From contig BAAIJX010000067.1 in the NCBI GenBank assembly GCA_054600435.1, positions 62,001-96,005 on the forward strand: a DNA stretch of 34,005 nt, in the 5' to 3' direction. A program made the translations under genes and the position numbers. Origin of the DNA: Neophaeotheca triangularis. Its lineage: Eukaryota. The notes below the pieces were generated by a model. That model worked only from the letters and a program-made list of their open reading frames with translations, was not told the DNA's origin and searched no databases. Shown here piece after piece: positions 5,496 through 34,005 of the stretch (position 1 is the first letter of the stretch; every line of letters begins with the position of its first letter).

Positions 5496-6205
5496 GGTAG
5501 TGGTTTGCGCGGTTGAGTCAGAAGTGGCAAGGGTTTGCTCTTTGCAGGTCTTGTGAAGTGGTGGTGGTGTCGTGACCGTTGGCGGTTGGTTGCGGTCGGG
5601 AGAGGTTGATGAAGGGTTTGTTGGGATGGGTACCATGTTTGGTTGAAGAGGAAGAACGAATACAAGGGTCTAGTGTAGAGTGTAGACCATGCTCCCGCCG
5701 CGTGCGCCGCGCGTGGGATCGACAGCTACAGCCTACCTGTGCTACCACGATACGACTAGACAGGGGTGGTCACTGGATACAGTGGATAGGTAGGGTGCAG
5801 GTGGACGGATGATTTGCAGAGCTTGCGAAGCTTGTGTGCATGTGGTCCCTCTAACCATCCATTACCTCCTATCTAAATCAATTTCTACCTAATCTATACC
5901 TACCTTAGCCACATACCTATAGTAGGTAATCCTAATAGGGTGATAGGGTGGTAGACACTACACCACCTGCACATGGCGTGCGGAAAGAGACGGCGCATAC
6001 ATACCCGCTGTCTCTTACTACTGCAAGCCTCTTTTTTGTCTACCAAAACTACGGGCACCTCACGCCCGCCGTAAGCATTTTGATAGTCATGGTAGTACTG
6101 TAGTCCCTGCCCTCATCTTCTCGCCCCCCAACCTCGTCACAACTCATATCACGCCTACCTACCCTACCTACAATTCATAAGTTACCTTTCGGAACAATCT
6201 CCACC

Positions 6206-7492
6206 ATGGCTACTGACGAGCAAGACGGAGCACCACTACTGCCCACGCCTTCGTTCAAACCCTTCAACCCTCCAACACAGCCAGACCAACATGAATCCGC
6301 CCCCTCTTCCCCAACCGCAACACCCGATGACACCATCTTCCCCTTCCCAACCTTTGCCACCTCCCGTCCAGACGCCCGCAAAACTCACTTCCCCCAATGT
6401 ATCGCCCATCGCGGCTACAAAGCCGCCTATCCAGAAAACACCATGAGTGCATTCCGCGGCGCCATGAAAATCGGTGCCCACGCCATCGAAACCGACCTAC
6501 ACATCACCAGCGACGACATCATCGTCATCTCCCACGACCCAACCCTCCAACGTTGCTACGGCCGCCCGGATAAAATACCCGACTCCACCTGGTCCTCCCT
6601 CTCCACCGCGAAAACTCTCCAGCCCCCCCACGACCCCCTTCCCCGCCTCACCGACCTCCTAACCCTCCTCTCATCCCCGGAAAACCACCACATCTGGCTC
6701 CTCCTCGACATCAAAATCTCCAACGACCCGGTCCGCATAATGTCCCTCCTCGCCAAAACATTCGCAACCCACCCTACCCCGTCCAACTCCCCTCCCTGGC
6801 CCTCCCGCATCCTCCTAGGCCTCTGGGCAGCCAAGTACCTCCCCCCAGCCCACTCCTACCTCCCAAATTACAGCGTCACGCACATAGGTTTCGCACTAAC
6901 CTACGCCGCACACTTCCTCGACCTCCCACACATAGCTTTCAACCTCTTCCTCCCCATGCTCATCGCCCCCGGTGGCACCAAATTCATCCGCGAAGCCCGA
7001 ACGCTCCACCACCGCCCCGTCTTAGCCTGGACGGTCAACGAAATCGACAAAATGTCCTGGTGTGTGCGGCATGGGATTGACGGGGTGGTGACGGATGAGC
7101 CGGAGGTATTTTTGGGACTTGTTCGGGGTTGGGAGGAGGCTGAGCGCCATGCTTCTTCCTCTTCTTCTTCTTCTTCTCGGAGTCTGGGTCACGGCTGGGC
7201 TGGCGGGCTTTTACCCATCGAGCCGAGGGGGTATTGGCGGTGTTTGAAAGTCTGGCTTTGGTTTCGAGTGCTGGGGTTTTGGAGTCTGCGGAATTTGAAA
7301 CCGGTTGCGAGTCGGGGTTTGGTTTTTGGGGGTGTGGAAGGGGAAGAGGGTGGGGCGGGAGGTCGAGGTGGGTTGGAGAGAAATAGTGGCTTTGGGCTTA
7401 AGAGTGTGGAGGGCATTAAAGGGGTCGATGGTGCGCTGGAGGGAGAGCTGGGGGGTGTTGGTGAGCGGGTTGAGGTAGAGGCTGCTACATGA
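6206..7492 (+). CDS. Glycerophosphodiester phosphodiesterase (GDPD) family protein, Pgc1-like phospholipase C
   Basis: PQCIAHRGYKAAYPENTMSAF, AIETDLHITSDDIIVISHD, LLLDIK, WTVN and GIDGVVTDEP motifs of the GDPD TIM barrel; hydrophobic C-terminal segment. Confidence 0.92.
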   Translation: MATDEQDGAPLLPTPSFKPFNPPTQPDQHESAPSSPTATPDDTIFPFPTFATSRPDARKTHFPQCIAHRGYKAAYPENTMSAFRGAMKIGAHAIETDLHITSDDIIVISHDPTLQRCYGRPDKIPDSTWSSLSTAKTLQPPHDPLPRLTDLLTLLSSPENHHIWLLLDIKISNDPVRIMSLLAKTFATHPTPSNSPPWPSRILLGLWAAKYLPPAHSYLPNYSVTHIGFALTYAAHFLDLPHIAFNLFLPMLIAPGGTKFIREARTLHHRPVLAWTVNEIDKMSWCVRHGIDGVVTDEPEVFLGLVRGWEEAERHASSSSSSSSRSLGHGWAGGLLPIEPRGYWRCLKVWLWFRVLGFWSLRNLKPVASRGLVFGGVEGEEGGAGGRGGLERNSGFGLKSVEGIKGVDGALEGELGGVGERVEVEAAT

Positions 7493-11189: not shown

Positions 11190-12644
11190 GCTGACGCTCT
11201 ACCGTCGGCCTGTGATGAGTATACACAAGAGGTGTGGGAGTCGGTTGGATTCGAAAAGGGCGAACAAAGGAAAAAGAGGTGGACCAGGGGAGGAGTCCTC
11301 CACATAAGGCCTGGGCAGTGGGAGCCTGGGAGGCGCCACTATTGAAACAATCTCCACTCATCTGCACATTTACACAGCGAACATGCCGTTGGAAAGTCGT
11401 GCCCCCTATCTCAGACAAGCACGTGGCCAACAAGGTAAGCAGTCCATGTATGGAACAACTGAAGGGCCCACGCAGGGATTGGAAAAACCCTAATCGAATT
11501 GACTAAAGCTATGGCTGGACTTTGCGGCCTGTAATTGGGCTTCCTTATAGACTATGGGTCGCAAGACTATTGAGTTCTCGAAAACCTTGCGCCCGATTGG
11601 CATTTAGGTCTATCAGCATGATTCCAAACTGCCGTGGTAGGAGGAAGTTGGCGGACCGAGCCATGAAAAGTTGAAGAACCGTTGCTCTAAGAGGCAAAGC
11701 AGGGTTGCTATCTCGCTGCAATTCCTTAGCCAGGTATCTGGGCCGTGTCTAGATCAGTTACACGCTTGGAAGTAGATCCCGCCCCAGTATCCAGCTCCGC
11801 ACGAGCACGAGAGCCCGGTTATGGAGACGAGCGTCGATCGAATTTGGACGAGAACGACTGTGAATGTATTGCTTGTTGTTTTGGCTGTGCCATTAGCAAT
11901 GATGGTCAATCCCACACGAGAGAGTTTCAATGCGAAACCGCAGAGTCTTTGATGCCGGAGTCGTCTAGCATCCGCAAAGCACGACTCGCACGAGTAGAGA
12001 CTAACGTTTGGTCAGCCAAGCACGCGGAAGGAAGAAGAAAAAAAAAAGAAAAAAAGGGCGTCTCGACTGCGGTTGCCTTCCAGGGTTCTGCCGTGGTCTG
12101 CCGATTCATGTCCAGGTCGAGGTCGGAGATCAGCACTGCGGCGGCGTCGTAAGCAATAACATGGACTGAATGTTCGCACAAGAAGGCGAAGAGGTCGATC
12201 TAGACGGAGCGCGGAACATCAATACCAACCAACGTCCTCTTCAACGGTTGGTTTGGTTTGAACGAGATTGAGTCTTTGCCTCTAGAGTGCGGCACGTGGG
12301 ATATTCCACGAACCACGGGCGCCTCGCGAACCTAATTCCAAGCATGTAAAATACTCCGAAGCAGAGTGTGGGGAAATTGCTGTGGTACTCTCATCTCCAT
12401 CTCTGTTGCTACCTAGGTAACTAACAACAAAGTATCTACTGTTGCCAGTGCTGTATCTGGCTCTTCTGGCTCAGAGCTATGCAAGTATTAATACCATTAT
12501 GCCAGCATAGCTCTTCCAAGAGAACAGAGTTGCGCGGCGCGGGCATCAGCCAGTCGCAGGCGAGTTTGGGACGCACACAGTGCAACATGCTAATCCAGGT
12601 TCCCGGGATTTACATGCCTCGCTGCCAATATACACCTGGGCACG

Positions 12645-14060
12645 TCAAACAACCCTCGCCATAGTCGCGCTTAGCCTGATTCGGGCAAGAACGACGAACA
12701 CGGTGCCGCCCAATATCATAGCAGCGGAGTAACACGACAGAGCCATGTAGCCGTGCTTGACCAACTCGCCAGAGATTGGAGGGCCGAAGAGTCCACTGCA
12801 ACGCCAACGTCAGCTTTTTGACACTCACCTAAAGCGAGATTGCGTGTTTGCAACTTACGTCAAGCTCACGGATCCCAATATAGCGCCGATAGCAGCACCC
12901 GCATTCTCGGGCAGCGTGAGCGAGGTCGCACATGCAATTTGCAAGCTCATGATTGAGCCCGAGACAAAGCCATACGCCGCGCCCCAGACCGCCACCCCGG
13001 CAACGCCGTCAGCAGTCGTCCAGCAAAACGCCACAAGAGCGCTGAGGACTCCGGCGACGACGAGCGTGTTGAAGCGACCCCAGCGGTCGGCTAAAAACCC
13101 CGGCACGATGCGACCAAAGGTAGAAGCACCGTTAATTATTGCTGGCATGTAAAAGGCAAGCTCGGGCGAGATGCCGAGACCGATGGAGTAAGTCGTGATG
13201 TAGAAGTACGGGGAGAAGAAACCAAAGTAAATCAGAGCCAGGCCAGCACAAAGGAACATGAATGGTGCCGACTTGATTCCTGAAAGATTTCTCTTTTTGG
13301 GACTGGCGGCGTCCGTCGTCCGGTCCACGTTGTCCGGAGTCTCCGGCTTCGCCTTGCTAGGCGGTCGAACTGTCAAGAGAGCAAAAAGTTGCAGCGGAAT
13401 CATGATGAATCCGACGATCCGTATGCACCACGCGAAGCTGAGCCCGTGGCGGTTGAAAAGCTGATTCAATACAATCGGCCACATCACACCTCCGATCGAT
13501 GATCCTGTAATGGAAACCCCGGTCGCGGCTGCTCTGTATTTGTTGAAGTACCTAGGCACTATGCCAGACGAAGGAACGGCCATCAAGGACATGCCGAATC
13601 CAAGGAGAAGGCCTTGTGCAAGAAAGAACTGATAATAATCCGTGCAAAGCGAGAGCGTGAAGATAGCAACTAACATGCAGAATGCTCCTATCGCCATTGG
13701 GAGTCTGGGTCCGTACTTGTCTGCGGTCTTGCGAGATCACATTAGTGGAGAACGTATATCTACCGGGGAGAGAGCAATACTCACGAATCCGGCGATCGGG
13801 GCGCAACCAAAAGCCATAAAGATGGCGAAGGAGCCTATCCAGGATATGTCAAAGGCTGATTTGTCGGGCATCAACTCTGTATAGAGTTGCTGAAAGACTC
13901 CAAAGGCATTCAAGAGCCCAACGGTAGTGAGGTACACAATCGTTGCTCCGGCTGTTGCAAGTCCAGACCGTAGTGTCAACTCCGGAGCGGTTGTGTCTTG
14001 CTGGCCATCCTCGAAGGGGGGTGTGCTTTCAGTCTTGGTCTGCTCATCACCGGGCTTCAT
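12645..14060 (-). CDS. MFS transporter, monocarboxylate-permease (MCH)-like; exons 14060-13785, 13727-12859, 12795-12645
   Basis: [72 protein letters not shown]; two GT..AG introns join the pieces in frame. Confidence 0.92.
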
Positions 14061-14633: not shown

Positions 14634-16754
14634 TCATTGGTAGGCTTGATTGTCAAGATCTCGAAACAGCGCATCCCAGTCCTGTACCTCCGTAGTCGTA
14701 CTTAAATCGAGGTAATCTTCAAAGAGATTCGGGTATTGTCCAGAAAACAGTCCGTCAGTGGCTGTCTCTCCGGCCGCATAAGCTTGATTGGTCAATGCTA
14801 TTCCTTCGGACGCATTCGTTGACGCCGCAGCACGGGACTGCTCAAACGACGTTTCCGATCCCTGGAGCTTGACCTTGTGCTTCTTTAGAACAATTGTCAG
14901 CGACTCCAAGTACATTCCAGCATGCAAGGAACCTTTCCCGGCCTCGACGAGCATCTCACAGGCCGAGTGGACCTCGGACTTCCGCTCCTCGTCGCCGTCT
15001 TTGTCTCCGTGAACGCACATATCTAGCACTAGCACGATGACAGCGCAAAAAAGATGGTGTAGAACGCACACAAGCTTGAGCGGATTGGAGCGTTGGGGTC
15101 CCAAGTCATTTGTTACTCTGGCCCTGAGGCTCAGGACCTTCCGTGCAGATTCCAAGCAGACAGTTCGTGAGAAGGCGAATCTAGGGTCTTGACTTGCGCG
15201 GATTAGAAAAGGAAGGTGAAGCCTGCAGCGCCTTGTGAGGATGGTAAGGTTTGTAAAATACCGCTGAGAGTCGATGATTTGGTCGCCGGTGACAAGCTGA
15301 GAGTCGGAGCAACTTCTATTCCCATTAAGCGTGAGAGAGCCAGGTAGAGTTTCCAAAAGCTGTGAGAACTTCCCGTCGAGCTCTGTTACGCGATCGTAAG
15401 GCATCTGGCTGATGTCGTCGCAGGCGAAGTAGTCCCATGTGGCGTCGGCAGCCTCGCGGCAGAGTTCTCCGAGCCGAACGCGGGAAAGATAGTAGGACAT
15501 TACGGTAGGCTCTGAGAGCGGACGGTCGAATTCTGCACCTCTCGTCATGAGGTCCTCGTCTGAAACGTTTCTCGGCATGTTGACTCGGATGTGGCGACGC
15601 TGCACGGAGTATGTACATTCCTGCGGGCCGGGGACAAGAGCCAAACTCCAATCCGTAGCTGCTAAATGCCACCAAACCCTCCTCTTCACCTCGGTCTCTA
15701 CCATCTGATCCCGTGTTTGTGGCTGAGAACAAGGCAGAGGTACAGAATCTGTTATGTGGAGGCCCATATGCCGCGCATTAGTGAGGGCTGTTGCGTGCAA
15801 GTAAAATGCCTTCGGAGAGAAGCCCTCTATGTGGAAAATCAGAAACATGACGATAATGGTCCCTTGTATTATCTCCAGAGAGGGTGAGGTCGTGCGCTGC
15901 GAATGCGTGTGGACATCGAGTGCACATCGAAGCCAATACATTCCAATGGCAGTTGCTTCGTCGGAAGAGCCTAAGATCGACGGTAATTCGTATGTGCTGA
16001 AACTTTTGTAGACAGCAGTGGTGGCAAGGATGCTGAAGAGAAGCATGAGCTGATTGACATTCGTAGGCTCATTGTTCCTTAGCCGCTCAAAAATATCGGC
16101 AATCTTAACATGGATGCTCGGTACATGCACAATGTGCTGCAGTGTGTCGACAGTCTCACTGTAGCTGGCAAAAAGATGCAGTGCTTCCGTCTCCGTAGGC
16201 AGGATGAGCTGCCCGTAAGACAAAGTGCCGCAGGCCACCATGGCGTGAAGATTGGCTAGATGTTCTGTGCCAACTCGAAGCCCATATGACATGTTGGGCA
16301 TCCGTGTATTCTCCCGAGTACCAACGCCTTCCAAGAATTGTAGATCGCCAGTGAAAGTCTTCACGACCTCTGATTCTGGAGCGGGAAGACGAGCGTTAGG
16401 TTTGCTGGTTGTGATTGGACCATTCAACTGCTCTGGAGAGTCGGTGAAGCTAGACTTGCCGCTGCGGTTGTTGTTGAATACTGCGTTCTCCAGCCGCCTT
16501 AGACGTGCACGGATGGCTGCGTTGTCCGCATCGAGATCGGATGATGGACCTTGCATCCGCGGTGTCGATCCATTATTCGTCGCAGGGTAAAGGGTCGATA
16601 CAGTATGGCCTCGATGTCCTTGAAAGAGACAAGATACACCACGGGACCTACAGTTAGAGCATGGCTCGGTTCGATCGCATTTCAACTTCTTCTTGCGGCA
16701 TGAATCGCAAGACACAGGCTCCTGACGTGGACGACTTGTTCTCTGCGGAGGCAT
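14634..16754 (-). CDS. Zn(II)2Cys6 transcription factor with fungal middle-homology domain
   Basis: CDSCRKKKLKCDRTEPCSNCRSRGVSC cluster; ARHMGLH...EVKRRVWWHLAATDW middle-homology motif; ATG at 16754. Confidence 0.95.
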   Translation of the reverse strand: MPPQRTSRPRQEPVSCDSCRKKKLKCDRTEPCSNCRSRGVSCLFQGHRGHTVSTLYPATNNGSTPRMQGPSSDLDADNAAIRARLRRLENAVFNNNRSGKSSFTDSPEQLNGPITTSKPNARLPAPESEVVKTFTGDLQFLEGVGTRENTRMPNMSYGLRVGTEHLANLHAMVACGTLSYGQLILPTETEALHLFASYSETVDTLQHIVHVPSIHVKIADIFERLRNNEPTNVNQLMLLFSILATTAVYKSFSTYELPSILGSSDEATAIGMYWLRCALDVHTHSQRTTSPSLEIIQGTIIVMFLIFHIEGFSPKAFYLHATALTNARHMGLHITDSVPLPCSQPQTRDQMVETEVKRRVWWHLAATDWSLALVPGPQECTYSVQRRHIRVNMPRNVSDEDLMTRGAEFDRPLSEPTVMSYYLSRVRLGELCREAADATWDYFACDDISQMPYDRVTELDGKFSQLLETLPGSLTLNGNRSCSDSQLVTGDQIIDSQRYFTNLTILTRRCRLHLPFLIRASQDPRFAFSRTVCLESARKVLSLRARVTNDLGPQRSNPLKLVCVLHHLFCAVIVLVLDMCVHGDKDGDEERKSEVHSACEMLVEAGKGSLHAGMYLESLTIVLKKHKVKLQGSETSFEQSRAAASTNASEGIALTNQAYAAGETATDGLFSGQYPNLFEDYLDLSTTTEVQDWDALFRDLDNQAYQ

Positions 16755-17760
16755 GGTGATCAACACCGTTCGCGGATTTGATGACCCCCACAGCGCTCCA
16801 TGTTGTGACTATCGGGCGAGCACAAGCAATTGGCGATGTGGGATAGGGGGTAGTGAGGTTCAGTCAGTAGAAGTTCGACGGGCCCAAGCTCTGGCCGCTA
16901 GGCTGCATTTGGTATATACACATACGGACACTGAGGTGCTTTCTCACTTCACAACCTCTTTCCTCAAAGCATCCTATCCCTTAGAAGAACCCGTAAACTC
17001 CACCTAAAGAACGGAGTAAAGGCTGCTCGAGACATGCTATCGTTACGATAGAAGAGCGGCGATGATCAAAGACTACGGCAAGGAGCTTTGCTCTGTCCCA
17101 GAACTTGCGAACACGGCGAACACGGCGTCTGCGGCGGGAATACCGGTATTTATATACGCTTCTCGGATCCACTGAAATTGAATAGAAGGCCTAGCAAATA
17201 GCTTAGGTCTAAAGGTATCATGGCGGCAACTCAACGTCGATGTTGCGTCTTCCAACGTCTTGGATTGAGGTTATGTATGAATCGCAGGACCTGCGATGCA
17301 CATATTACAGAGTGGGTGTCACTGCGCAAATCCTGAAAGGCGATAGAGTACTCTGCTTGTAACCGGGCTCGGTGCGGCGAGGTTGGCGGGCTGGAGAGAC
17401 CGTTATCGACAGTCTTTGTCTTTACCCCAAGCGATGCATCCAGACCTCCCGTCGTTCGTCGAGTATCAACATGGGCTGTGCAATTTGCGCACATGGGGTT
17501 AAAACCAGTGCTGCGTCCTCTAAAGCCCAGCGTTCGTGCCTTCCCTGGGACGCACAGCTCTCGGCCGAATGCATCGCGGTTTGCGTTCAAGTGAGCGACA
17601 TGCTTGTTGTGGCCCAGCAGACACGGGAAGCCGTCATTCCAATCTCGCTAGTCGCGAGCTGATCTGGGTGTCCATCTTGCAGACAAGGAGGAGTCATGTC
17701 CCCATGGCGTTATCGAGCCAATCTGTGTGCCGGGCTGCGGGCAAGTCTCCCTTCTGACCT

Positions 17761-18884
17761 TCAGTCATCTCCAACCTCGGCAACAGCAAAGTACCCCTTG
17801 TTTTCCACGACACCACGATTCTTCACAACAGCTGTGTACTTAACGACCCAAAGAGGTCTGACCTCGCCCTTCAAGCTCTCACCTTTCTGCGCGCGTTCAA
17901 GCCCTTTCCCACTCGCATCATCCAAATGCAGACTCTTCCTCTTCTCTCCAGTTTTGCTACCCTCGGCCAAGACACCCGCGCCACCAGGACCAAGCAGCTC
18001 CCTAACCGTCCCTCGCGGTAGAATGTTACTGCAGTCGTTATGCACCAATAGCTCAACGCCTTCCTTCTTCGCCAGCGCCATCAGAGGCCTGGGAACACTA
18101 CAGCAATCACGCAAGTTGATTTGATCGACACTCGGCCTAACGCGAACGCTTTCGACAAACTCCGCCAGCCTATCGTGACCAAACTCAGCCAAACCAAGTT
18201 TCTTGACCACGCCCTCGTCGTGCAAAGCCTCCAATGTCCGCCACGTCGCGAGCTGCGAGGCCAGCTCTTCCGGCTGCGCTTCTACGGGCCCACGGGTGCT
18301 GATCTTGTCCGGGCAGTCTTCCTCCTCGTCGAAGTAGATGCCGGGGAAGGAGACGATGAGTAAGTCGATGCTGGGCATGTGCAGCTCGCGAAGGACGAGG
18401 TCGACGGCCGAGCGGGTTTGCGCCGCGCGAGTTTCAATCGTTTCGTCGGAGGCCGCAGGGGAGGTGGATGGCAAGTAGAACAGTTTGAGCGTGATGTCGT
18501 ATTGTTCGCGCTCTTCTTGTAGGGCTGTGTTGCTAAAGTCCAAGGCAGGGATTTCGAGGGTGCTTTCTGCAGGGGGCGTGGTCGGTCTCGTCCAGGTGTT
18601 GTAAGGGAGTCTTGGGGTCTCGGATGGGGTTGAAGTTCCATTGCTGTTGTTGCCGCTGTTATTGTGGTTGTTTTCCTTCGCTTCGCGGTAGCCATTGGTC
18701 GGAGGGGGGGTGGAGTGCGACTCAAAGTTGTTGCGGAGGGACGAGATCAGCTCGGTGTTGGACTTGGATTTTGATGGGCGGTGAATGGAAGAGCCGCCGC
18801 CCATAATATTGCTGTGGCCATTGTTAGTTATGATCGGAGTGCGGTCTAGCTAGAGTCGTACGAAGTAGAGAGTACGAGCTTCAT
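17761..18884 (-). CDS. Glutamate-cysteine ligase (gamma-glutamylcysteine synthetase) regulatory/modifier subunit; exons 18884-18862, 18811-17761
   Basis: Spliced start MKLVLSTSNIMGGG; EEREQYDITLKLFYLP, IDLLIVSFPG, LGLAEF, PSVDQIN..DCCSVP, LLVHNDC, WVVKYTAVVKNRGVVENKGY match the aldo-keto-reductase-fold GCLM family. Confidence 0.9.
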
Positions 18885-22180: not shown

Positions 22181-23361
22181 ATGAAGGTAAGCTGCTGCCA
22201 GGAGATACCCTCTCTCTCTCCACCTGTCTTTCGCGCCATATACACGCATTGCGCGACGAGACAATGCCATGTCAGCCCATGCTAACAAACATGTAGTCGC
22301 TTAGCTTCCCCGTCCCAAGGCAGCCGCTTCCCAGGACAACCGAATCCATGTCCGACGTCCTCAACTTCACCACCCACGATACCCACTGCGTCGGCGCGCT
22401 AGACGTGTTCTCTACAAAGGCCACAAAGGCGGAGAAGAAGGATTATAAGAAGGTCAAGGCCGTGCTCGACAAGAACTACGAGGATCTCCGCCAGGCGCAG
22501 GTCTGCAAACTGGCGTGGATGAAGGCCAAGGGCGTGGAAATCACCGAGGAAGACAGTAGAGAGCCTGAGCAAAGCAGCGTTTTCGGCAATCTCCATACGG
22601 ACAGCAAGGCTCGTCGCACCTTCTACTTCGTTACTCAAGCGCTCAACCTGGTCCATCCAGAGTACGATATCACTCAAGCATTGCAGTTGAGCGACTTCAA
22701 GCGTGTCTCCCTCAACTATATCCAGAAGAAGATGACAGATCAGCTTGGGTATCTATATCCTAGGAAGCGCAATTTCAGCAGATCCGACCGTTTCCGCCCA
22801 ACCCAAGCCAACAAAGCAGGCAACATGCCACCTTGGGACAACAAGTGCTGGGCCGCCTTTCACAAAATCATGGAGCTCCGAGCGTGCAAGATCTACGAGT
22901 ACGCTCCAGAGGAAGACCCGTACGTCGGTGATGTTGGCAGCTCGACTTACGTCCACTTTGTCTTCTTCAACACCTTCCGCAAGCGTATTTCCGTCCTGCA
23001 CTGGCGCATTGTCAGCATCATGGCCACGTCTCCCGTTCGCCATGATTCTCCGCCTAAGCGCCGCAAAGTCAGCGACTCCTTCGACGTAGCTACTGGAGCC
23101 GCCAAACGCAAAGACTACTGGTTTAGCGACCAAGCACCATCCTATGCACGGGACGGCAGCATCACAGGCATGGCCGAGTACGACGACGACGAAGAAGACA
23201 TGGAGCCTGCCACCTACTCATCCACGGACGACGGCTTCTGGGCCCTGGAAGACGCCCGCAACCGTATAGCAAATGACGAGTGGTTTGACGAGGATGAAGA
23301 CGAGGACGACAGCCAGACGCTCGGTTACGTTCACGAGATGGCGGAAGAGGCGAACTTCTAG
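22181..23361 (+). CDS. MAF1: Maf1-like RNA polymerase III repressor (divergent); exons 22181-22186, 22297-23361
   Basis: ATGAAG|GTAAGC micro-exon spliced in frame; LNF..HCVGALDVFSTK...KKDYK, SVFG..SKARRTF...LN..HPEYD, IYEYAPEEDPY, FFN..RKR and an acidic tail match the Maf1 A/B/C boxes. Confidence 0.8.
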
Positions 23362-24390
23362 GCGGCTTTCGACAACTCATTGGCTTTCAACAAGGAAAAC
23401 GACTACGTCGACGACGAACACGTGAGTAAATACTACCACGACAACATTTCCGAACGTCCTGCCCACCGCCACGACGATTTCCGGGACCTAGCAGCCCTGG
23501 ATTACAAGAGCAACGACGCAGGCCCAGCGAAAGTTCGACAGCTTGGCATCGGCGCGGGGGAAGGCAGGTCATGAGGATCCGGCTGCCGGGGGGTTTCGGC
23601 GCTGCGAAGCATAGTCAAGGAGCTCGCGCCAGGTAATAAGCTCCTTGAGGCACTAATAGTCGGCGTCGGGGGTATCTTTGCCTGCCCTCCCGCCCGTCCT
23701 TACGGTTATATAGAAGTAGGAAACGGGAATTGCTAAAGGGGGCATGCGGTAGGGTATGAAGAGGCCGAGAGCTCTTCTCTTGCAATAGAAGGCCGCTTAC
23801 GTGCTAAAGGGGTGTTCCTAAGAAGTTAGGGAGAGCATGTATGCTATCGGAAAGGCTATAGAAGAGTAAGGTTGCCCCTAATAGGCGTTCTTCTCGGCGA
23901 ATTACTAACCGAATATATTAGTCGGCAAAGTTATTTACGAGTTGTAGATTATGTAGCTAAGTTTAGTCTACTTTCTACTATAGTCTTTCATCACTCCTTT
24001 TACGTTCTTTATAGCCTAATTATATTAGTATCAATTTACCTAGTCTTTTAAATTAATAATATAGACATATAAATAATCTTACAATTTATATAGTAATTAT
24101 TAACTAAAGACTTAAAGTAAGAGCTATTTACTACTTTAAACAACCTTAGATATAAAAAGTATAATATATATAATTACTAAGTTTAGATATGTTCTAAGCT
24201 AAAAACATTTTTACTTAGACTTTTTATATTAATCACATTACTTAAGTATTAATTACATCCTCTTTTAATAGCCTATATAGGTATATTACATTTATATACA
24301 TAATACTATTATCGAGTAGCGCGAGTACTTAAGAAGCTAGGAGACTAGTCTTACTTAGGGAGGTATTATTTCTAATAGTTACGAGTAATG

Positions 24391-24817
24391 TGTTACGATC
24401 CTATAAGGTAGTCTTATAGGTTTAGAGCTTATAGTAGAAGAGAAGAGATATTAAGGAAGGCTAGTAAGGGTGTTTCCTTTATTATAAGGATTTTAAAGAT
24501 ATATAAAGTGTTACTATAGACCTTTTAGTAAGATTATAACATAAGTTAAACACAAATCTCTATCTTGGAAATATCGCTACCTAAATATAAGGAGATTTAT
24601 GTCTCTAATTATTATAATCTGTCGCTCTATAGTACTTAGTTAAAGGTAAGTACTAAGTAGAGGTAAGTACTACTCTATCGCTTAGTAGTACTTAGTTAAA
24701 GGTAAGTACTAAGTAGAGGTAAGTATATTATATAACCTAAATGTACTCTATCCTATAACTATAGGTTCTACTAAGCATTCCTTATTATATACTAGGTATA
24801 GCGTAATGTTCATAATA
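24391..24817 (-). repeat. 3' LTR of outer element (427 bp), followed by polypurine tract 24818-24829
   Basis: Begins TGTTACGATCC; ends CATAATA (RIP form of ..TAACA); next to ctatccccctcc (PPT on - strand). First ~210 bp are homologous to the inner LTRs. Confidence 0.88.
24630..24725. repeat. 40-bp perfect direct repeat (56-bp period) in outer U3
   Basis: tagtacttagttaaaggtaagtactaagtagaggtaagta at 24630-24669 and 24686-24725; each copy contains AGTACTTA-N8-TAAGTACT inverted arms. Confidence 0.9.
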
Positions 24818-24905
24818 CTATCCCCCTCCTAGTCTAGCTCGTCCTAAGCTTATTCTCTACTTATCTTTCGTTCTATAGTTAATAGTATCTTCCCTTATTA
24901 ACGCG

Positions 24906-25502
24906 ATACCTAAAACAAAGAAGTCTTCTACTACTCGTTGCTATAAGTTATTTAATTTCCTAGATTCATATAGAACGGTTCTTAACATAGTTCGAAAATG
25001 TATGTAATACTAGGAGGTAGGTCGTATATATAAGGTACACATTTAGTCTAGAAAGTGTACTACCTATATATAGCGAAACATTTCTTCTTATAATATAAGA
25101 GTAATAGAGAACGAGTTCGCTTACCTTTATCATAATCATAAGTGTCTTTATAAGGCGATAGAAGAGGCTTAGTATATATCTATTATTGCTTAGTAAAAGG
25201 TAGCTAAGGCTTAAGAGGAAGCGAATCGTTTACTATCTAAGGAAATATGTCTTTAGAAACAAATAGACCGTTTATAGGAGAAGGAGGGAGAGGCTATAGC
25301 TATTAAAGAGCATAACATCGAGCTCCTCGAGCTTAAAGAAGGTAGTAACGAGCTCTTTAATCCTGATTTTCCTCCTAATTAGCTAGGTCCTAATCTAGCT
25401 TTAAATCCTCTTACTTAGACTTCGATAGACAGCCTACCTAACGAGTTTTAGGACCTTAGTCTAATTCCTAGTGATATTACTATAGGATCCTCTAGTAGTT
25501 AA
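24906..25502 (+). pseudogene. RIP-inactivated antisense ORF of outer element: Zn2Cys6-like plus coiled-coil protein (199 codons)
   Basis: No frameshifts over 597 bp; start ATA (RIP form of ATG); stops are all TAA/TAG. C-M-*-Y-x6-Y-x8-C-x2-Y-x7-Y becomes C-x2-C-x6-C-x8-C-x2-C-x7-C if TAY is reverted to TGY. Confidence 0.75.
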
Positions 25503-26076
25503 GTAAGTTGTCCTTAGGTTCCTAGGTATTTTTACTTACTAGGTATCCTTTCTATTTCACGAGGTAGTTCTAACTATCTCTATCTAGAATCTTTTCGACC
25601 TTATACTTAGCTTCTTCCTCTAGTAGATTATAGTAGAAGGTATCTTAGATTAGTATTTTAGTATCTACTAGTTCGAGTAAGGATATATAGAAGACTAGGT
25701 AGACTCTAGTATCTTTTAGGAGTTAGAGGAGGTAGTTAACTTTTCCTCTTTATTCTTTAACTAGAAATGGTCCGACTTTAATATAGTCTAGTTTTCGCGT
25801 TTATCTCCTTATCTTTAGGTTTTTCGTAAGTAAGTACACCTTATCCCCCTTCTTAAGCTAAGGTACTATTTTAGAGTCCTTATGTCTCTATAACTTAAGT
25901 CGCTATTATAACTATGTAAGTTTGTCTTTCGCTTATTTATATACTTTCTATAGCTACGAAGATGTTTATAGGGCCTTTTCTATAAGTAGTCCTAGCTTTA
26001 GTTCTATAAACATATTTAGATCTTTTCTAAAGTTTATATAGAATAGAGTTATGCCTATCGTCTCTAAGGCATTATT

Positions 26077-26497
26077 TGTTGCGATCCTACAAGGTAGTCT
26101 CACGGGTTTAGAGCTCGTAGCGGAAGAGGAGAGATATCGAAGAAGGCTAGCAAGGGTGTTTCCTTTGTCGTAAGGGTTTTAAAGATACGTGAAGTGTCGC
26201 TATAGACCTTTCAGTAAGATTGTAATATAAGTTGAACACAAATCTCTACCTAGGAAATATCGCTAGCTATATACATAGGAGATTCGTGTTAGATCAGTTC
26301 TTGACTAATCCGTCGTGCTCAGGATCAGACTAATCCTAAGTGTCCTAGCTTAGACTTAGTCTGAGTCTAAGCGAGCATGCTTAGTTAAAGTCTAAGCGAA
26401 CGTCTTGGCTAGTTCTAAGATCACGTGTCCGGCAAGCCTTAGGGTTAGACCCTAGCTCCGACTAGGAATTCTAGCTCTGCTTAGCTTAGCCGTAACA
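26077..26497 (-). repeat. 3' LTR of inner element (421 bp); PPT at 26498-26510
   Basis: TGTTGCGATCC...CCGTAACA; adjacent ctatccccctttc reads GAAAGGGGGATAG on the - strand. Confidence 0.96.
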
Positions 26498-26581
26498 CTA
26501 TCCCCCTTTCAGCCTAGCTTCGTCCTCGAAGCCTAATAAAGTTCCGTTATTCCCTACATCGTTTTGTCATCAAGTTTCGCG

Positions 26582-27181
26582 ATGTCTTCTACCCTGTCCC
26601 GTAAACAACAACGTCTTAATCTCTCGGCCGAAATCGAGAAGTCTAGAACAACCAACATAGTACCCTGTTCAGCCTATCGATCTACGAGGAAATCGCCTTC
26701 GGCCGAACTAGTACGATGTATAATTAGTGCTCGATCTAGTCGGTGTTCGGAATGTATACGCAAAGGGTATACTAAGTGTGACGCAAAGCTTAGTCGTCCT
26801 AAGTGGGAAAAATGGAGAGATTCACGCAACAAACTGTAACGGCAGTTAGAGGAGTGTAAGGAGGAGGAGCTCGAGCTTTTACAAAAACTACACGAGCGTC
26901 GTTCGAAAAAGTTGCGGTTGCGGAAACAGCTTCGTTATGCTAAGGGTCGCACGGAAACCGCGGTGTCTAGAGAGTTAGAGGATTTAGAGCAAGTAGATCG
27001 GTTAGAGGAAGATCTCTTAGGTCCGGTTAACACTAGGGTTAAGGTTACGCAGCGTCTAGGCTTTGTTAGTATTCTAGAGATGTCGACGCAGGACTAGAGT
27101 GCTATCGACGGCTTAGATCTTCCTTCCGAGCTTTAGGATTTCGGTCCTAATGATATTGTTACAGGGCCTTCTAGTAGTTAA
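26582..27181 (+). pseudogene. Antisense ORF of inner element: Zn2Cys6-like plus coiled-coil protein (200 codons, 3 RIP-type internal stops)
   Basis: MSSTLSRKQQRLNL...PCSA(Y>C)RSTRKSPSAELVRCIISARSSRCSECIRKGYTKC...KL*RQLEECKEEELELLQKLHERRSKKLRLRKQLRYA... One frame joins ORF-track pieces 26564-26839 and 26912-27097. Confidence 0.8.
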
Positions 27182-30100
27182 GTAAGTTGTCCTTAGGTTC
27201 CTAAGTGTTTTCGCTTGCGTAGTAACCTTTCCATTTCACGAGGTAGTTCTAACCGTCCTTGTCTAGAATCTTTTCGACCTCGTACTCGGCTTCTTCCTCT
27301 AGTAGATCGTGGTAAAAGGTGTCTTAGATTAGTGTTTCGGGGTCTGCTAGTTCGAGCAAGGATATATAGAAGACTAGGTGGACTCTAGCGTCTCTTAGGA
27401 GTTAGAGGAGATAGTTGACTTTTCCTCTTTGTTCTTTAACTAGAAACGGTCCGACTTTGACATAGTCTAGTTTTCGTGTTCGTCTCCTTGTCTTCAGGTT
27501 TTTCGTAAGTAGGTACACCTTATCCCCCTTCTTAAGCTAAGGTGCCGTTTTGGAGTCCTTATATCTTTATAACTCGAGTCGCCGTTACGACTATATGATC
27601 TTGTCCTTCGCCTATTAGTGTGCTTCTTGCAGCTGCAAAGACGTCTATAGGGCTCTTTCTACGAGTGGTCCTGGCTTTAGTTCCATAAATGTATTTAGAT
27701 CCTTTCCGAAATTTGCATAGAATAGAGTTAAGCCTGTCGTTTCTAAGGCATTGTTATTAAGTGCGAGCTATGCTATAGGTAAGAGCGCTACCTAATTGTC
27801 CTAAGCGTAGTTGACGTAATGTCGCAAATACGTTTCGAGGGATTGGTTTGAGCGTTCTGTCTGTCTATCGGTTTCGGGGTGAAATGCCGTCGAGAGCTTG
27901 TGCTTCACTCCTATTGCTAATATTAAGGTTTTCTAGTAGTTAGATGTGAAGAGCTTGTCTCTATCCGTAATCAGAACCGTTAGAATGCCGTAGTATCGTA
28001 CTAATCTATCGAGAACAAGGTGTCCGAGTTCTTCTACAGTAATTGTCTTATTGTAGGGAACGAAATGTGAGTACTTCGTGAGTCTGTCGACTATGACTAG
28101 GATCGAATCGTAGTCCTTGTTTGTCGATAGGTCTCTAGATCTCGGTAGCTTTACGATGAAATCCATTGTAACCTCGTTCCATAGTAGATCCGGTGGCTCC
28201 TAGAATTGTAGGTTCCTATATTTGGCGTGTCTCGAAGCTTTGTTTCGTTAGCAGCTCGTACATTTCTTAATGTACTCTAAGACCTTCTGTCTCATTCCGG
28301 GGAACACGAAGTTACGTCTAATGTATTCTACTGTTCTAGCGATTCCTAGATGTCCGTTAGTAGGTCTATCGTGGTAGTCCTAGATGTACTAGCGTTCCCT
28401 TTCGTTTAGAACCCTAAACTTCCTATGTTCGACAGGGAATTCCTCGGTGTCATCCCTAAGTACTCGCAGTACTAAGTTAAATTCCTAGGGGTTAGCGCTT
28501 AGGCTTCCGTCCTTATTAACCTTTAGTATGCGGTGTTGCTATAGAAGGTGTCCTTCTATGTAGTCGCTTCTTCTGCTTAGCGCGTCGGCGCGCCCATTGT
28601 CTTTTCCGGGAGTATAGACTATGTCGAACTTATATTGTCCGAGTAGCTCTAACTATCTACATTGTCGGCGTGACAATTCCTTGGTTGTTGTAAAGTATTG
28701 CAGGTTCTTGTGATCCGAGTAAATAGTTAGTCCGGTTGCTCCTTTACAGTACACTCTCTAGTATCGCAATGCTATAACGATTGCGAGCAGTTCTTTGTCG
28801 TAGATCTCGTAGTTCTATTCCGCTAGTAACATCTTCCTTAAGAAGTAAGCGATAGGGTGTCGTTTGCTTTCAACCTCCTACGTAAGGCAAGCTCCTATTG
28901 CTCTGTCGGAGGCATCGGTTTCGATTTGAATTGGTTTCTTAGGGTCAAACATCCTTAGCGTAGGAGCAGTCGTGCATAACTCCTTAAGCTTATCGAAGGA
29001 TTATTGTTGAATCTTTCCCTATACGAATAGTATGTCCTTTTTCGTAAGGTTAGTTAGAGGCGTAGCGAGCCTTAAGTAATCCTTTACGAATTTCCGATTG
29101 TAGTTAGCTAATCCGAGGAATGCTTGGATGTCCTTAACTGACTTGGGTATTAGCTATTCCTCGATCGATTAAGTTTTCTTCGGGTCTATTCGGATCCCGG
29201 TAGTGCTAATCACAAAACCTAGAAAGTCGACTTCCTTCTTGTAGAACTCGCATTTCTCTAGTACTGTTCTAAAGTCTACTTTGTCGAGTCGTTCGAATAC
29301 TGCGTGTACGTCCTTAGTATGTTATTCTCGTGATCCTTTCGTGAAGACTAATATGTCGTCGATGTAAGCGATAACAGTAATGTCGAGTAGGTCTCGTAGG
29401 ATGTCGTTAACGAGTTGTTAACAGGTTGCTAGGGCGTTCGTAAGTCCTATAGGCATAACCTAAAATTCGTAAAGTCCGTAGCGCGTTCGAAAAGCTGTTT
29501 TCCACTCTTCCCCCCTTGCCATTCTAACTAAATAGAATGTATCTCGGAGATCGATCTTGGTGAACTAGTGTGAACCGGTGAGTCGATCTCTCATCTCGTC
29601 GATATTAGGCAGTGGATAACGGTTTTTAGTGGTGATCGCATTGAGTCGTCTGAAATCGATAACTATTCGTAGTTTTCCTCCTTTCTTAGGAACGAAAAAC
29701 GGTGGTGAAGCGGCTAATGAAGTAGAGGGTCGAATCTATCCTTTCTTCATTTTTTCATCTAGCTATCGTCGTTGCTCTTCGAGCTCTTTTTCGGATAGCG
29801 CGTAAAGTGGCCCCCATGGTATCTTCGTACCGGGCTGAATGTCGATTCGGTAGTCCTATAGTTAATGTCTAGGTAGAGCGGCTACTCCTTCCTCTTCCTA
29901 GAAAAGGCGCTTCCATTTTCTAAATTCTCTAGGGATATCTAAAGGTGCGTGACTTCCTTCCTCAACTCTTACTTATTAGTCCGTTTAGGCTAGTTCGGTA
30001 CCTATAGAGTCCGATCTAATTCGTATTAGTATCGTGGTCGATTAGCGATACGTTTCGTTGATCTGCCTTCTCTTATCTGCCGTCGATCGCTGCCGGCGCG

Positions 30101-30548
30101 TAGGGTAGGTTGTAGTAACGTAACTACACCTGTCGAATGTAAGTACTCGTTTTCTCTAATCCACTATAGGATTGTGTCGTTCTAACTAAGGAGTGCCTAG
30201 AACGACGTCATGTCTAGCCATAGGCATAACGTCTAGGACAATTCGCTCGTGATGCTTTTAGAAGACAAGTGGTAGCGGTACTGTTTCGCTATCCACGTCG
30301 GGTAGTAATAAGCCGTCCACGGCTATTAGTTCGTACCCGCTATCTGTTTTCTTCTAGGTAGCTAGCCTATGCTAACGTACGAAAGTTTCCGAGATAAAGT
30401 TTCCGCTAGCTCCGGAATCTATTATAGCGAGGGTTTCGTATCCGTCGACAGTACATGTTGTTCGGAAGACCGTTCCTAATACTATTTCGTGTTAAGCATT
30501 TGTATTGTTTAGTTCCTAACGCTCGCTCTTAGCGACAGGTCCTATTCG
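27102..30548 (-). pseudogene. pol: pol: protease, reverse transcriptase, RNase H, integrase, chromodomain (RIP stops, frame intact; true 3' end uncertain)
   Basis: LAIIDSGASGNFIS (~30415), AYIDDIL (~29360), IETDASD (~28915), MDFIVKLP..DSILVIVDRLTKY (28166 downward), GPFLV (~27445), EYEVEKILD...YLVKWKGY..SENT*EP (~27290-27195). Confidence 0.95.
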
Positions 30549-32761
30549 TTTTTTAAGAAGTAGGTAGATGAATCCGCTGTTTCGAGAGAGACTTCCTAGT
30601 AAAGGGGTCCGTCCCGAGGTCTAATCGTGACTTTTCCTTGGATTGCGTGTGCGGTGATAGGTCCTCGTGTAGTTGCTTTAACATGTCCGAGGATCATCTT
30701 TCGGTCGACTAGTAGTAAGAACTTATCGCGCGGTACTATGGTCTATTGGTCCAAGGAATCCTGTGCTTGCTTCTTCATTTCTTATAGCGTGATTTCTTCT
30801 TCTCTCTATTGCTCCTAGATAAGCTAGAATTCTCTATAACGATTCTTGACTGTTTTGACTCGTTGTCTTATAGAATGTGGGATTCGTATCCCGTCTGGCG
30901 TAATGTAGCCGTTTTCTCCGTGAAAAGTACTTCCTATTAGTGGCCTGTCCTAGACAAAGGTGGTAGCGTCATACTCGACGGCGACCTTTCGGTAGTCCTA
31001 GAACATTGCTCGTAATCGTATAAGTATGGCTTCGAATTAGTTAGGTTCTAAGCGTCGTTTGCCTTAGATTATTAGGAACACTTCTTCGTACGATCGTGCA
31101 ATGTAAATGACCATTTTCTTGATCGGGTTTGGTCCGTGCACAATGAACTCTACTACGTCGTTGTCGTCTAGTTCATCATCGTCGGTGTAGTCGCATTCGG
31201 AGTCGTCTTCGGAATCCGTCACTGTCGTATCCTCTTGCAATTCTGGAATTTCTAGAGGCATCGATAGCCTTAAAGGGCTAATCTCCGGCGTTAGTACGAT
31301 CGCAGTGAGTTCCGGTGTCTAAGATATTTCTTCGTTGTCTGAGTCGGGTGTTAGGGGTGCTATTATCGGTGATAGTGCTTAGTTTTCTTGCAGTTTGTCG
31401 TCCTCCTATGCAAATAGAGGTAGGGACCTTCCTCGGGCTACGTTGCCGTCGTCCCTTGACTGCTGTAGTGGTTAGCGTCTTAACATCATGTTGAGTTCCT
31501 TCTAAGGCTTACGTAGTTGCTTAGATTCTTCGTCTGCTATAGCCTTAATCCTGTCGTTTAGATCTACTATCTAATCGGCTACTTAGATCATAAGGTTAAA
31601 GTGCTCTTTAGTCTACTCCTTATAGCTCACCAAGTCATCGTGAAACTCCCTAAGCTTCTAGTATTGCTCGATTAGCGCGTCCGTTCCGGACTTCGGGGTA
31701 ACTCGTTCGATAACGTTCACTTCCTTCCGAGGTCTAATAGGTATTCCGTTAGTCACTAGTCCCTAACTTTTGTGCACCAAACAGTAATCCCTCTTGTAAA
31801 ACCTCTAGTGAAGTTCGTCGTGTTCCGGTTCTTCGTAGGTTCCGGTGATGTCGTAAGCTCCGCGGCTCTTATCGGTAGGAGAGTCGTTATCCTATCGGGT
31901 CAAAATCGCATTAACCTCCTAGCGTGGGCGCATCTGTTTCCCACGGCAGTCTCGTGCATAGTGCCCTATCTTGTAGCAGTTATAGCATTCCGGTCCGTTC
32001 CGTTTCTTGCCTAGGGCGTTCTGTTTGCCCCGTCCTCTATCCCTACCCTTCCTAGGACGCTGTTACGTAGAGTCGAGTTCTATCGCATCAGGATCGCGAC
32101 GTTGCTAACCGACAGGCCGGCTGCCGGTAGCATAGCTAGTTCGTCCGCGATACTGTCTAGTGTGGCGTTTTTCCATAAACCGTTCGTAGAGAGCGTCATC
32201 AACCTCGATCGCCGATTTAATCATACCGGGGAGAGTTAACTGATCGCCTCCGTAGCGTATGAGTTCGTCCTTCACGTTGTCCTTAAGTCCTCGGTAGTAC
32301 ATGGTTATAAGAGCGTTGTCGTCCTAGTCGGTCTTGGCTAAGTGCTCCTAAAACTTAGCAGTGTACTAAGAGGCAGACGTTTTCTACGTAAGGTGCTGAA
32401 TCATTCGGATAGCAACTTGTCGATCGTTGCTCAATCTATAGACGTTACGGATGACCTTAACAAAAGACTTCTAGTTCGAGAATAGTCCTTTAGGGTCGAT
32501 TCGTTCTATAAGGAAATCCGTAAGCTTTAGGCGGATCTAGTGTTAAGCTTCTCTACGAAGGAAAGAAGCAGTAGTAAGAGGTTGCTTCTACTCACTAACG
32601 CTTTCTATAAGGAAGAACATCATCATCTGGTTAACCTAGTCGTCTAGCTTGTTACGTTCGCCATAGAAGTAGTCCGGTTTGGCAACCTTGCTAGTGACCA
32701 TGGTTAATACTCCTCGTTAAGTGCTAGCGACGCTTGCGTCTCGGTTATCGGATGGGGACAT
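30542..32761 (-). pseudogene. gag: gag (740 codons including stop), with CCHC zinc knuckle and long C-terminal extension
   Basis: ATG at 32761; KVAKPDYFYGERNKL, MYYRGLKDNVKDEL, CYNCYKIGHYARDC (~31945-31990); ends ..KNE* in the same frame. Confidence 0.9.
30548..30554 (-). other. Putative -1 ribosomal frameshift heptamer A AAA AAC at the gag/pol junction
   Basis: - strand TTA AAA AAC GAA TAG ends gag; the -1 frame runs into the protease motif. Confidence 0.75.
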
Positions 32762-32801
32762 ACTTACCTATTAATCTCTCTTTCCTAGAGGGTGTTCAAA
32801 G

Positions 32802-33222
32802 TGTTGCGATCCTACAAGGTAGTCTTACGGGTTTAGAGCTCGTAGCGGAAGAGGAGAGATATCGAAGAAGGCTAGCAAGGGTGTTTCCTTTATCGTAAGG
32901 GTTTTAAAGATACGTGAAGTGTCGCTGTAGACCTTTTAGTAAGATTGTAACATGAGTTGAACACAAATCTCTACCTAGGAAATATCGCTAGCTATATACA
33001 TAGGAGATTCGTGTTAGATCAGTTCTTGACTAATCCGTCGTGCTTAGGATTAGACTAATCCTAAGTGTCCTAGCTTAGACTCAGTCTGAGTCTAAGCGAG
33101 CATGCTTAGTTGAAGTCTAAGCGAACGTCTTAGCTAGTTCTGAGATCACGTGTCCGGCAAGCCTTAGGGTTAGACCCTGGCTCCGACTAGGAATTCCAGC
33201 TCTGCTTAGCTTAGCCGTAACA
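32802..33222 (-). repeat. 5' LTR of inner element (421 bp)
   Basis: Colinear with 26077-26497; by manual comparison 14 differences, all CpA>TpA or TpG>TpA. Confidence 0.96.
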
Positions 33223-33882
33223 TTATTATTAAGTACGAGCTATACTATAGGTAAGAGCGCTACCTAATTGTCCTAAGTATAGTTAACATAATGTCGCAAA
33301 TATGTTTTAAGGGATTAGTTTAAGTGTTCTATCTATTTATCGGTTTTAGGGTAAAATGCTATTAAAAGTTTGTGTTTCACTTCTATAGCTAATATTAAGG
33401 TCTTCTAGTAGTTAGATGTAAAGAGCTTGTCTCTATCTATAATTAGAACTATTAGAATACTATAGTATCGTACTAATCTGTCGAGAACAAGGTATCTAAG
33501 TTCTTCTATAGTGATCGTCTCGTTATAGGGAATAAAATGTGAATACTTCGTGAGTCTATTAACTATAACTAGAATTAAGATATAGTCCTTATTTGTCGAT
33601 AGGTCTTTAGATCTTAGTAGCTTAACGATAAAATCTATTATGACTTCGTTCTATAGTAGATCTAGTAGCTCCTAGAATTATAGGTTTCTATATTTAGTAT
33701 GTCTTAAAGCTTTATTCTATTAGTAGCTCATATATCTCTTAATGTATTCTAAGACCTTCTATCTTATTCTAGGGAACATAAAATTATGTCTAATGTGTTC
33801 TACTATTCTAGCGATTCCTAGATGTCTATTAGTAGGTCTATCGTAGTAGTCCTAGATGTACTAGTGTTCCTTCTTGTTTAGA

Positions 33883-34005
33883 GGGTAGGGTTAGGGTTAG
33901 GGTTAGGGTTAGGGTTAGGGTTAGGGTTAGGGTTAGGGTTAGGGTTAGGGTTAGGGTTAGGGTTAGGGTTAGGGTTAGGGTTAGGGTTAGGGTTAGGGTT
34001 AGGGT
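33883..34005 (+). repeat. Telomere (TTAGGG)n, chromosome end
   Basis: GGG-TAGGG followed by 19 perfect TTAGGG units to the end of the window, G-rich strand pointing outward. Confidence 0.98.

Follow-up and report, generated by a model that had tools for sequence, protein, structure and literature searches.

A lineage of chromodomain-bearing Ty3/gypsy retrotransposons of filamentous ascomycetes carries, on the strand opposite gag-pol, an accessory gene that lies tail to tail with pol and overlaps its last codons. A copy of this gene occupies positions 26582 to 27181 (plus strand) of a stretch of 34,005 nucleotides from Neophaeotheca triangularis (contig BAAIJX010000067.1, positions 62,001 to 96,005 of the forward strand; hereafter the window), where RIP has killed it; in its conserved form the gene has about 190 codons. 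That the frame stems from a genuine gene, accessory to this lineage of elements, is close to certain. Most LTR retrotransposons are thought to depend on host factors for their transcription, and the explanation which best covers the observations as a whole, and which on balance we adopt, is that of an element accessory gene encoding a small, Zn2Cys6-like DNA-binding regulator.

The last 10 kb of the window form a subtelomeric nest of retrotransposons, and a (TTAGGG)n telomere repeat, beginning at about 33883, ends the window. The younger element, delimited by self-BLAST and by reading its boundaries from the sequence, extends from 26077 to 33222 (7146 bp) and is oriented on the minus strand. 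Its 3' LTR (26077 to 26497, minus strand, 421 bp) has TG...CA ends and is 96.5% identical by self-BLAST to 32802-33226; its 5' LTR, likewise of 421 bp and located by self-BLAST with the ends read from the sequence, occupies 32802 to 33222 (minus strand). Adjoining the 3' LTR is a polypurine tract (26498 to 26509), read as a run of purines on the minus strand and kept in the older copy of the nest. The element is flanked by a 5-bp target-site duplication, TTATT, read at 26072-26076 and again at 33223-33227, and its flanks, once rejoined, match 27749-27755 of the element itself, which indicates insertion into an older copy. The stop-riddled gag-pol region (27104 to 32801, minus strand) was recognized from Pfam matches and translations. 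Pfam models matched on the minus strand of the younger element are RVP_2, RVT_1, RT_RNaseH, Integrase_H2C2, SH3_Tf2-1, Chromo and zf-CCHC, with the chromodomain at approximately 27150-27284 (Pfam Chromo) and the gag zinc knuckle at approximately 31943-31990 (Pfam zf-CCHC), in another frame than pol. The PR-RT-RH-INT order together with the C-terminal chromodomain, both on the minus strand, makes this a chromovirus-type Ty3/gypsy element, and the TG..CA LTRs and 5-bp target duplication found alongside that domain order are those of a chromovirus. The older, related element is represented by an LTR, an accessory region and the end of pol at 24387-26076 (minus strand), resuming at 33223-33882; it is truncated by the telomere and more heavily RIPed. 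The TpA/ApT index is 1.62 in the younger copy and 1.87 in the older, compared with 0.71 in the 23.5 kb of unique DNA of the window, and the corresponding values of (CpA+TpG)/(ApC+GpT) are 0.58, 0.25 and 1.17.

The initial annotation had described a plus-strand frame of 200 codons, antisense to gag-pol, interrupted by internal stops, and this description holds: the pseudogene comprises 199 codons and a final TAA, with internal stops at codons 86 (TAA, 26837), 172 (TAG, 27095) and 185 (TAG, 27134). Its placement beside the 3' LTR is likewise correct, the distance requiring only a slight amendment, as the ATG lies 84 nt inside the LTR end at 26497 and not 85. Two intact homologues (47-48% identity) can be aligned to the frame over its whole length, all gaps being short and in frame, in agreement with the earlier statement that it contains no indels. 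Three segments can be laid out along it. A six-Cys, Zn2Cys6-like cluster running from C29 to C66 (26666 to 26779, plus strand) has the pattern C29-x2-Y32-x13-C46-x8-C55-x2-C58-x7-C66, in which ligand 2 is a tyrosine. A long heptad helix, or coiled coil, with a conserved RLRKQ motif (26795 to 27016, plus strand) was placed by homology to residues 69-142 of a modelled homologue. The acidic C-terminal tail (27017 to 27178, plus strand) contains a conserved Trp motif whose Trp codon is the TAG stop at 27095, and it shares its DNA with the 3' end of pol, which is read from the opposite strand.

Damage to the frame had been ascribed to RIP-type lesions only, and the individual lesions agree with that diagnosis, as do the RIP indices of the element. 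The position of Tyr32 is a cysteine in all 95 intact family members, and the codon-172 stop falls on the conserved Trp of the family, present in 75 of the 88 alignment rows occupied there. At 26837 other copies read C, giving the codon CAA, in one contig of set X1, one of set X2 and six of set X3 (X1 and X2 possibly derive from the window's own sample). When the X1 contigs are compared with the window, transitions account for 278 of the 287 places at which the kind of change was scored. Given three stops and a lost zinc ligand, the window copy is dead and encodes nothing today. Compared with the LTR and the pol end, the accessory ORF had a lower contig depth, a measure that cannot rank parts of the stretch. 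TATA-like strings occur 38-48 nt before the ATG both in the window and in an intact relative (L001, described below); because the upstream regions of the copies do not align, no promoter claim is made from them.

The dead frame belongs to a large family. A word-indexed search with the window protein returned two intact proteins of 191 and 188 amino acids (47% identity; E of 3e-34 and 9e-31), and a profile made from three sequences, run against 1.84 billion representatives, matched 382 of them at E<=1e-3, 82 at E<=1e-10 and 20 at E<=1e-30. Most members recovered by the profile search are 170-230 amino acids long, typically about 190, and the six cysteines are the sole invariant columns of the alignment (95 of 95 intact members aligned). 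Named members come from Xanthoria, Lachnellula, Cytospora, Dissoconium, Watsoniomyces, Thermoascus and Cercospora, and the family spans at least the Lecanoromycetes and Leotiomycetes. At least four paralogues are found in Lachnellula arida, where the contigs that hold them are about 1 kb long. In the database, many of the short members have suffered Cys-to-Tyr changes, as is expected of RIPed repeats. A scan of the viral_contigs collection returned no relative. Two matches to the cysteine pattern were rejected as spurious, one from a metagenome on high-GC, bacterial-like DNA (L002) and one from the genome_contigs collection on DNA of 70% GC (L003).

The most informative relative is L001, a metagenome contig of 1728 bp that is free of RIP. 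It holds an intact accessory ORF at 237-851 (42% identity); an open ORF for integrase, SH3 and chromodomain runs toward it and ends at 670, so that the two overlap tail to tail by 182 nt. Since pol ends at 670, accessory codons 1-145 of L001 face no pol sequence. This contig allows a decision on whether the frame might be no gene at all, and instead the shadow of a conserved minus-strand sequence or a chance open frame. Such a reading could draw on one minus frame of the window that has only five stops, and on a 283-codon minus-strand ORF that L001 has in the same region. The plus frame is, however, the sole frame open in this un-mutated relative, and in the cross-species comparison of the window with L001 it scores 345, against 200 for the next-best frame. 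That next-best frame is the fairly open minus frame of the window, which has four stops in L001, whereas the minus frame open in L001 meets 13 stops in the window and reaches a score of 103. Taken with the 382 homologous clusters, their invariant cysteines and the 145 codons of L001 that have no pol opposite them, these results make an artefactual frame exceedingly improbable, and both the claim of a genuine, conserved gene and the earlier concern that it might merely mirror a sense-strand ORF can be settled in favor of the gene.

It had also been proposed that the gene is part of the element and occupies the gap from pol to the 3' LTR, and several lines of evidence now carry the point. In the younger copy the frame lies inside the LTRs and the target-site duplication, flanked by the polypurine tract and the end of pol, and the arrangement recurs elsewhere: three independent cases, namely the younger copy, L001 and the older copy of the nest, each have an accessory ORF situated after pol and before the 3' LTR and read from the opposite strand. 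The member in the older copy is degraded (24903 to 25442, plus strand; start codon reading ATA) and was detected by the family HMM at E 2e-9 over profile positions 7-174, having been missed by tblastn with close homologues. It sits in the same place and orientation as its counterpart and belongs to a subfamily with canonical 6-8-6 spacing. The LTRs and pol ends of the two nested elements are about 83-85% alike; their accessory versions are very different, and the accessory DNA of the younger and older copies does not align. A weak hint of further variation comes from the contig sets: in one contig of X1 position 26526 is followed directly by 27159, and X1 and X2 each have four contigs that part from the window just short of 27168. 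Some related copies may thus lack the window's version of the accessory gene.

Such variability raises the question of whether the gene is a passenger, that is, a fragment of a host zinc-cluster gene captured once and of no use to the element. Copies that apparently lack or have replaced the region, as judged from the one joint and the several loose contig ends, would suit a passenger, as would the divergent versions in the two nested copies. Against it stand the constancy of position, orientation and length in three loci and the persistence of the gene in several ascomycete classes with six invariant cysteines. Further counter-evidence comes from the distribution of changes over codon positions. 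Transversions, a class of change that RIP does not produce, number 53, 43 and 81 at positions 1, 2 and 3, respectively, over 191 aligned codons, a pattern that fits constraint, favors the plus frame as the coding one and speaks against a useless passenger. A passenger is accordingly quite improbable.

The architecture of the protein was derived from models of intact relatives. AlphaFold2, supplied with the family alignment, returned a full-length model of a homologue with a pLDDT of 88.2, and the N-terminal 96 residues modelled alone reached 94.7. The full-length model consists of a helix at residues 5-19, a knot at 21-64, a single helix at 69-142 and two short C-terminal helices; within the knot, short helices directly follow cysteines one and four, and the N-terminal model has helices at 26-30 and 52-57 before the long helix. 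Hydrophobic periodicity in the long helix has a power of 57.5 at period 3.5, whereas periods 3.0 and 4.0 give 6.4 and 1.5, which is a clear heptad signal. The mean net charge of members is +2.7 for the N-terminus, +4.2 for the Cys domain and -7.5 for the last 55 amino acids. Conservation outside the cysteines is seen in the helix, at the stretch A-(R/K)-x-x-R-L-R-K-Q, and in the tail, at a Trp. The protein is thus predicted to have four parts (an N-terminal helix and a six-Cys knot, both basic, then a heptad helix of some 75 residues and an acidic tail with Trp), and the order of cluster, coiled coil and acidic tail given in the initial annotation is borne out by the homologue model, the heptad signal and the charges.

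This architecture bears directly on how relatives have been named. One member (P0011; family profile E 1.6e-44) is deposited as the 'env' of Cercospora beticola metavirus 1, and two database records in all apply an envelope label to relatives. According to the portions of the source article that concern it, this member stems from a 1247-nt C. beticola RNA contig that carries only this ORF and was positive by RT-PCR, and it is 64.3% identical to an ORF of CfT-1 termed an 'env homologue' (PMC8537984). A membrane-span-like stretch, defined as a 19-residue hydropathy above 1.6, was found in none of the 95 members, the model is that of a soluble zinc knot with a coiled coil, and the gene lies on the strand opposite gag-pol. 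The 'env' label does not fit the family, and the prospect that the gene encodes an envelope protein is vanishingly small.

Whether the knot belongs to the Zn2Cys6 class is a more delicate matter. The consensus spacing of that class is C-x2-C-x6-C-x5-12-C-x2-C-x6-8-C. Among 114 stored proteins with the six-Cys pattern, 82 have a first loop of 6, a middle loop of 8-9 and a last loop of 6-8, and so fit the consensus; the window copy departs from it, with a first loop of 13 residues in place of 6, a length common to 19 proteins. Sequence models give a consistent but faint signal. The window protein has no match to Pfam Zn_clus (PF00172) at E<=10, and of 27 members inspected, eight have Zn_clus matches of 10-16 bits, all below the Pfam cut-off of 21 bits. 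Zn_clus is nevertheless the commonest Pfam match in the family (43 of 95 members at E<=1, the best at 4.2e-4), followed by a coiled-coil model (22 of 95); DUF3716 matches weakly in 2 of the 27. The control, a host Zn2Cys6 factor whose gene lies at 14637-16808 of the window, passes Zn_clus with 36.3 bits, and alignment of the family with this factor by hhalign gives a probability of 65.6% and an E of 5.8e-5, with the six cysteines in register. Against PDB sequences, the strongest match of the family profile is tetherin (E 0.005), over the coiled coil only; PUT3 follows at E 0.014 and 0.052, with the six cysteines and the following coil aligned, and LAC9 (E 1.2), LEU3 (3) and Cep3 (6.8) rank lower.

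In an all-against-all structural search of 48,161 chains the top two hits were HAP1-DNA (Z 3.7, 66 residues aligned) and PPR1-DNA (Z 2.9, 57 aligned), both chains consisting of a zinc cluster and a coiled coil, at low Z and with an rmsd of 8-10 A. Foldseek found no match in the PDB for the full-length or the N-terminal model, a re-examination of two chains by pdb_via gave none either, and the VIA wide structural search with the full-length model returned generic coiled coils only (Z about 7). UniRef and the ESM Atlas automatically name members as having a 'Zn(2)-C6 fungal-type domain'. Between Cys2 and Cys3 there is no conservation of the basic residues with which GAL4-type proteins contact CGG. 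A scan for CGG pairs found none in the window LTR, which is RIPed, and a few upstream of the gene in L001, a count that carries no statistics. The description 'Zn2Cys6-like' given in the initial annotation is therefore retained in part: the profile, Pfam and structural signals are mutually consistent, but all fall below threshold, and the window protein itself has a 13-residue first loop and no Zn_clus match. Because the signals lie under every formal threshold, the family is called Zn2Cys6-like and is not filed in PF00172. The knot is probably of the Zn2Cys6 fold type.

If the fold is of this type, a function can be sketched. The six cysteines would hold two zinc ions per chain, as in the Zn2Cys6 domains of GAL4-type proteins, and the long helix would form a parallel dimer. 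The product would be a small regulator that binds DNA sequence-specifically and is translated from an antisense transcript of its own, the promoter of which may lie in or adjoin the 3' LTR. Its most likely targets would be the element's own LTR or host promoters, through which it could set the transcription or the copy number of the element. To the proposition that the protein is a transcription regulator we assign somewhat less than an even chance. The fuller scenario is tentative, and rather unlikely to be right in its entirety: a lineage-encoded, miniature GAL4-like factor that binds LTR or host promoters and drives or limits the element, its gene being an exchangeable module with subfamilies of 13-8-7 and 6-8-6 spacing.

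The main competitor to a regulator is a real element gene whose product is something other than a transcription factor, such as an RNA or cDNA chaperone, an adaptor tethering particles or integrase, or a decoy for a host coiled-coil factor. The subthreshold resemblance to Zn2Cys6 leaves room for such roles, the best-conserved parts outside the cysteines (RLRKQ in the coil and the Trp of the tail) resemble sites of protein contact, and the relevant portions of a review of plant antisense aORFs suggest that these take part in retrotransposition (PMC7264820). Weighing on the other side, the order of cluster, linker, coiled coil and acidic tail matches that of PUT3, HAP1 and PPR1, the cluster is basic as in DNA binders, and Zn_clus is by far the commonest of the weak Pfam matches. 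A role of this second kind is unlikely, yet it is the alternative that merits most attention, and the DNA-binding regulator stays the preferred explanation.

The window copy itself is no more than a pseudogene, lodged among nested, RIPed elements in a subtelomeric region, and the wider interest lies in the family. If its members are true sequence-specific regulators, a large group of fungal elements would carry its own switch, which could explain bursts of activity, the control of copy number and effects on neighbouring host genes. A function would then also be at hand for brtn-type antisense genes, listed as 'function unknown' in the pertinent part of a 2020 review. Independently of function, the names now attached to members are 'env', 'hypothetical protein' and 'Zn(2)-C6 domain-containing protein'; retrotransposon accessory protein would be the better name, and relabelling would strip false host transcription factors from fungal gene counts.

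Several known systems can be set beside the gene. The likeness to GAL4-type factors (PUT3, PPR1, HAP1 and GAL4) lies in the order of the six cysteines and in the linker, coiled coil and acidic region that accompany them, and the matches are weak. The accessory protein differs from these factors in being only about 190 amino acids long, in lacking the Fungal_trans middle domain, in scoring below the Pfam cut-off and in being encoded by a retrotransposon; the window subfamily has, in addition, an insert of seven residues in loop 1. HBZ of HTLV-1 is an antisense nuclear factor with a coiled-coil dimeriser that is expressed from the 3' LTR. Unlike the accessory protein it is a bZIP and not a zinc-cluster protein, and it belongs to a vertebrate retrovirus. 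CfT-1 has a length of about 7 kb and LTRs of about 427 bp, dimensions close to the 7146 bp and 421 bp of the younger element.

The nearest precedent is found in Boty-like elements, in which Zhao et al. reportedly described an additional antisense gene, brtn, in 2011. The initial annotation had presented an antisense gene in a fungal element as new and had taken Ty3/gypsy elements to encode only gag-pol. With an antisense gene reported at the same position in 2011 and a family member already deposited as 'env', the novelty cannot be upheld, and given brtn the gag-pol premise is out of date. In the sections of the literature that treat it, brtn is located, in Botrytis and Sclerotinia, in the interval that separates pol from the 3' LTR and is of unknown function (PMC7264820), it is noted in BcGypsy1 (PMC8365987), and a Monilinia transcript matches a truncated Pol and BRTN (PMC5987419). 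The supplements of PMC8365987 contain no 'brtn' text, and no database match of the family carries the name BRTN. Like the accessory gene, brtn of Boty belongs to a fungal Ty3/gypsy element with a chromodomain and sits there antisense to gag-pol, in the gap from pol to the 3' LTR, a likeness of position; in contrast to the accessory gene, the passages that describe brtn mention no zinc cluster. A literature search confined largely to the open literature returned no report of a zinc-cluster reading of a retrotransposon antisense gene, and PMC3248453 and PMC2774666 contain nothing that bears on the matter.

Antisense additional ORFs are also described, in the part of the review devoted to them, in the gap between pol and the 3' LTR of the plant elements RIRE2, Grande, Retand and PvRetro13 (PMC7264820). 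As likened by that description only, the plant ORFs share with the accessory gene their position, orientation, family-level conservation and unassigned function, and they differ in having plant hosts and in belonging mostly to non-chromovirus lineages (PMC7264820). The window gene is a new, dead case of the antisense accessory gene of fungal chromoviruses, a kind of gene that was already known. What it adds to these known systems is a family of 382 clusters, a layout repeated at three loci, and an architecture of zinc-cluster-like domain, coiled coil and acidic tail.

The younger element, a RIPed chromodomain Ty3/gypsy element with gag-pol on the minus strand (26077-33222), is an insertion within the integrase-coding region of a related copy that is older and more heavily RIPed (24387-26076 and 33223-33882), and the 5-bp duplication TTATT is found on either side of it (26072-26076 and 33223-33227). 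The older LTR region includes a tandem pair of 55-56-bp units that are 91% alike (24615-24725). The older copy is cut off immediately at telomere repeats, (TTAGGG)n, which form the end of the window (33883-34005).

The LTRs and pol ends of the two nested copies are ~83-85% alike, and yet their antisense six-cysteine accessory genes belong to different subfamilies, with loops of 6-8-6 (24903-25442) versus 13-8-7 (26582-27181). This divergence between otherwise similar copies means either rapid evolution of the accessory gene or module exchange.

TATA-like strings are located 48 nt upstream of the accessory ATG of the younger element (26534-26545) and 38 nt upstream of that in L001, an un-mutated metagenome contig (199-208), both within the element and outside the LTR. 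Conservation of these strings is not demonstrable, as the upstream regions of the window and L001 fail to align. Opposite the accessory gene, L001, a GC-rich relative, also contains an open frame of 283 codons (111-962, minus strand). This frame is not conserved in the window, where it has 13 stops, and it was therefore regarded as a chance shadow frame.

Across window positions 1-23500, a Pfam search of stop-to-stop ORFs detects tubulin (2265-3775, -), a glycerophosphodiester phosphodiesterase (6104-7489, +), an ankyrin-repeat protein (8457-11198, -), an MFS transporter (12858-13736, -), an aldo/keto reductase (17764-18849, -), and Maf1 (22297-23358, +); RIP is absent from all six. A true host Zn2Cys6 transcription factor (14637-16808, -; Zn_clus 36.3 bits plus Fungal_trans) served as positive control.

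In P0021, P0038, P0084, P0145, and P0011, all database proteins of the accessory family, ligand cysteines are changed to Tyr or Arg. Copies of this gene damaged by RIP have been annotated as proteins elsewhere, both in other genomes and in a "virus" record derived from RNA, the deposited "env" of Cercospora beticola metavirus 1 (P0011).
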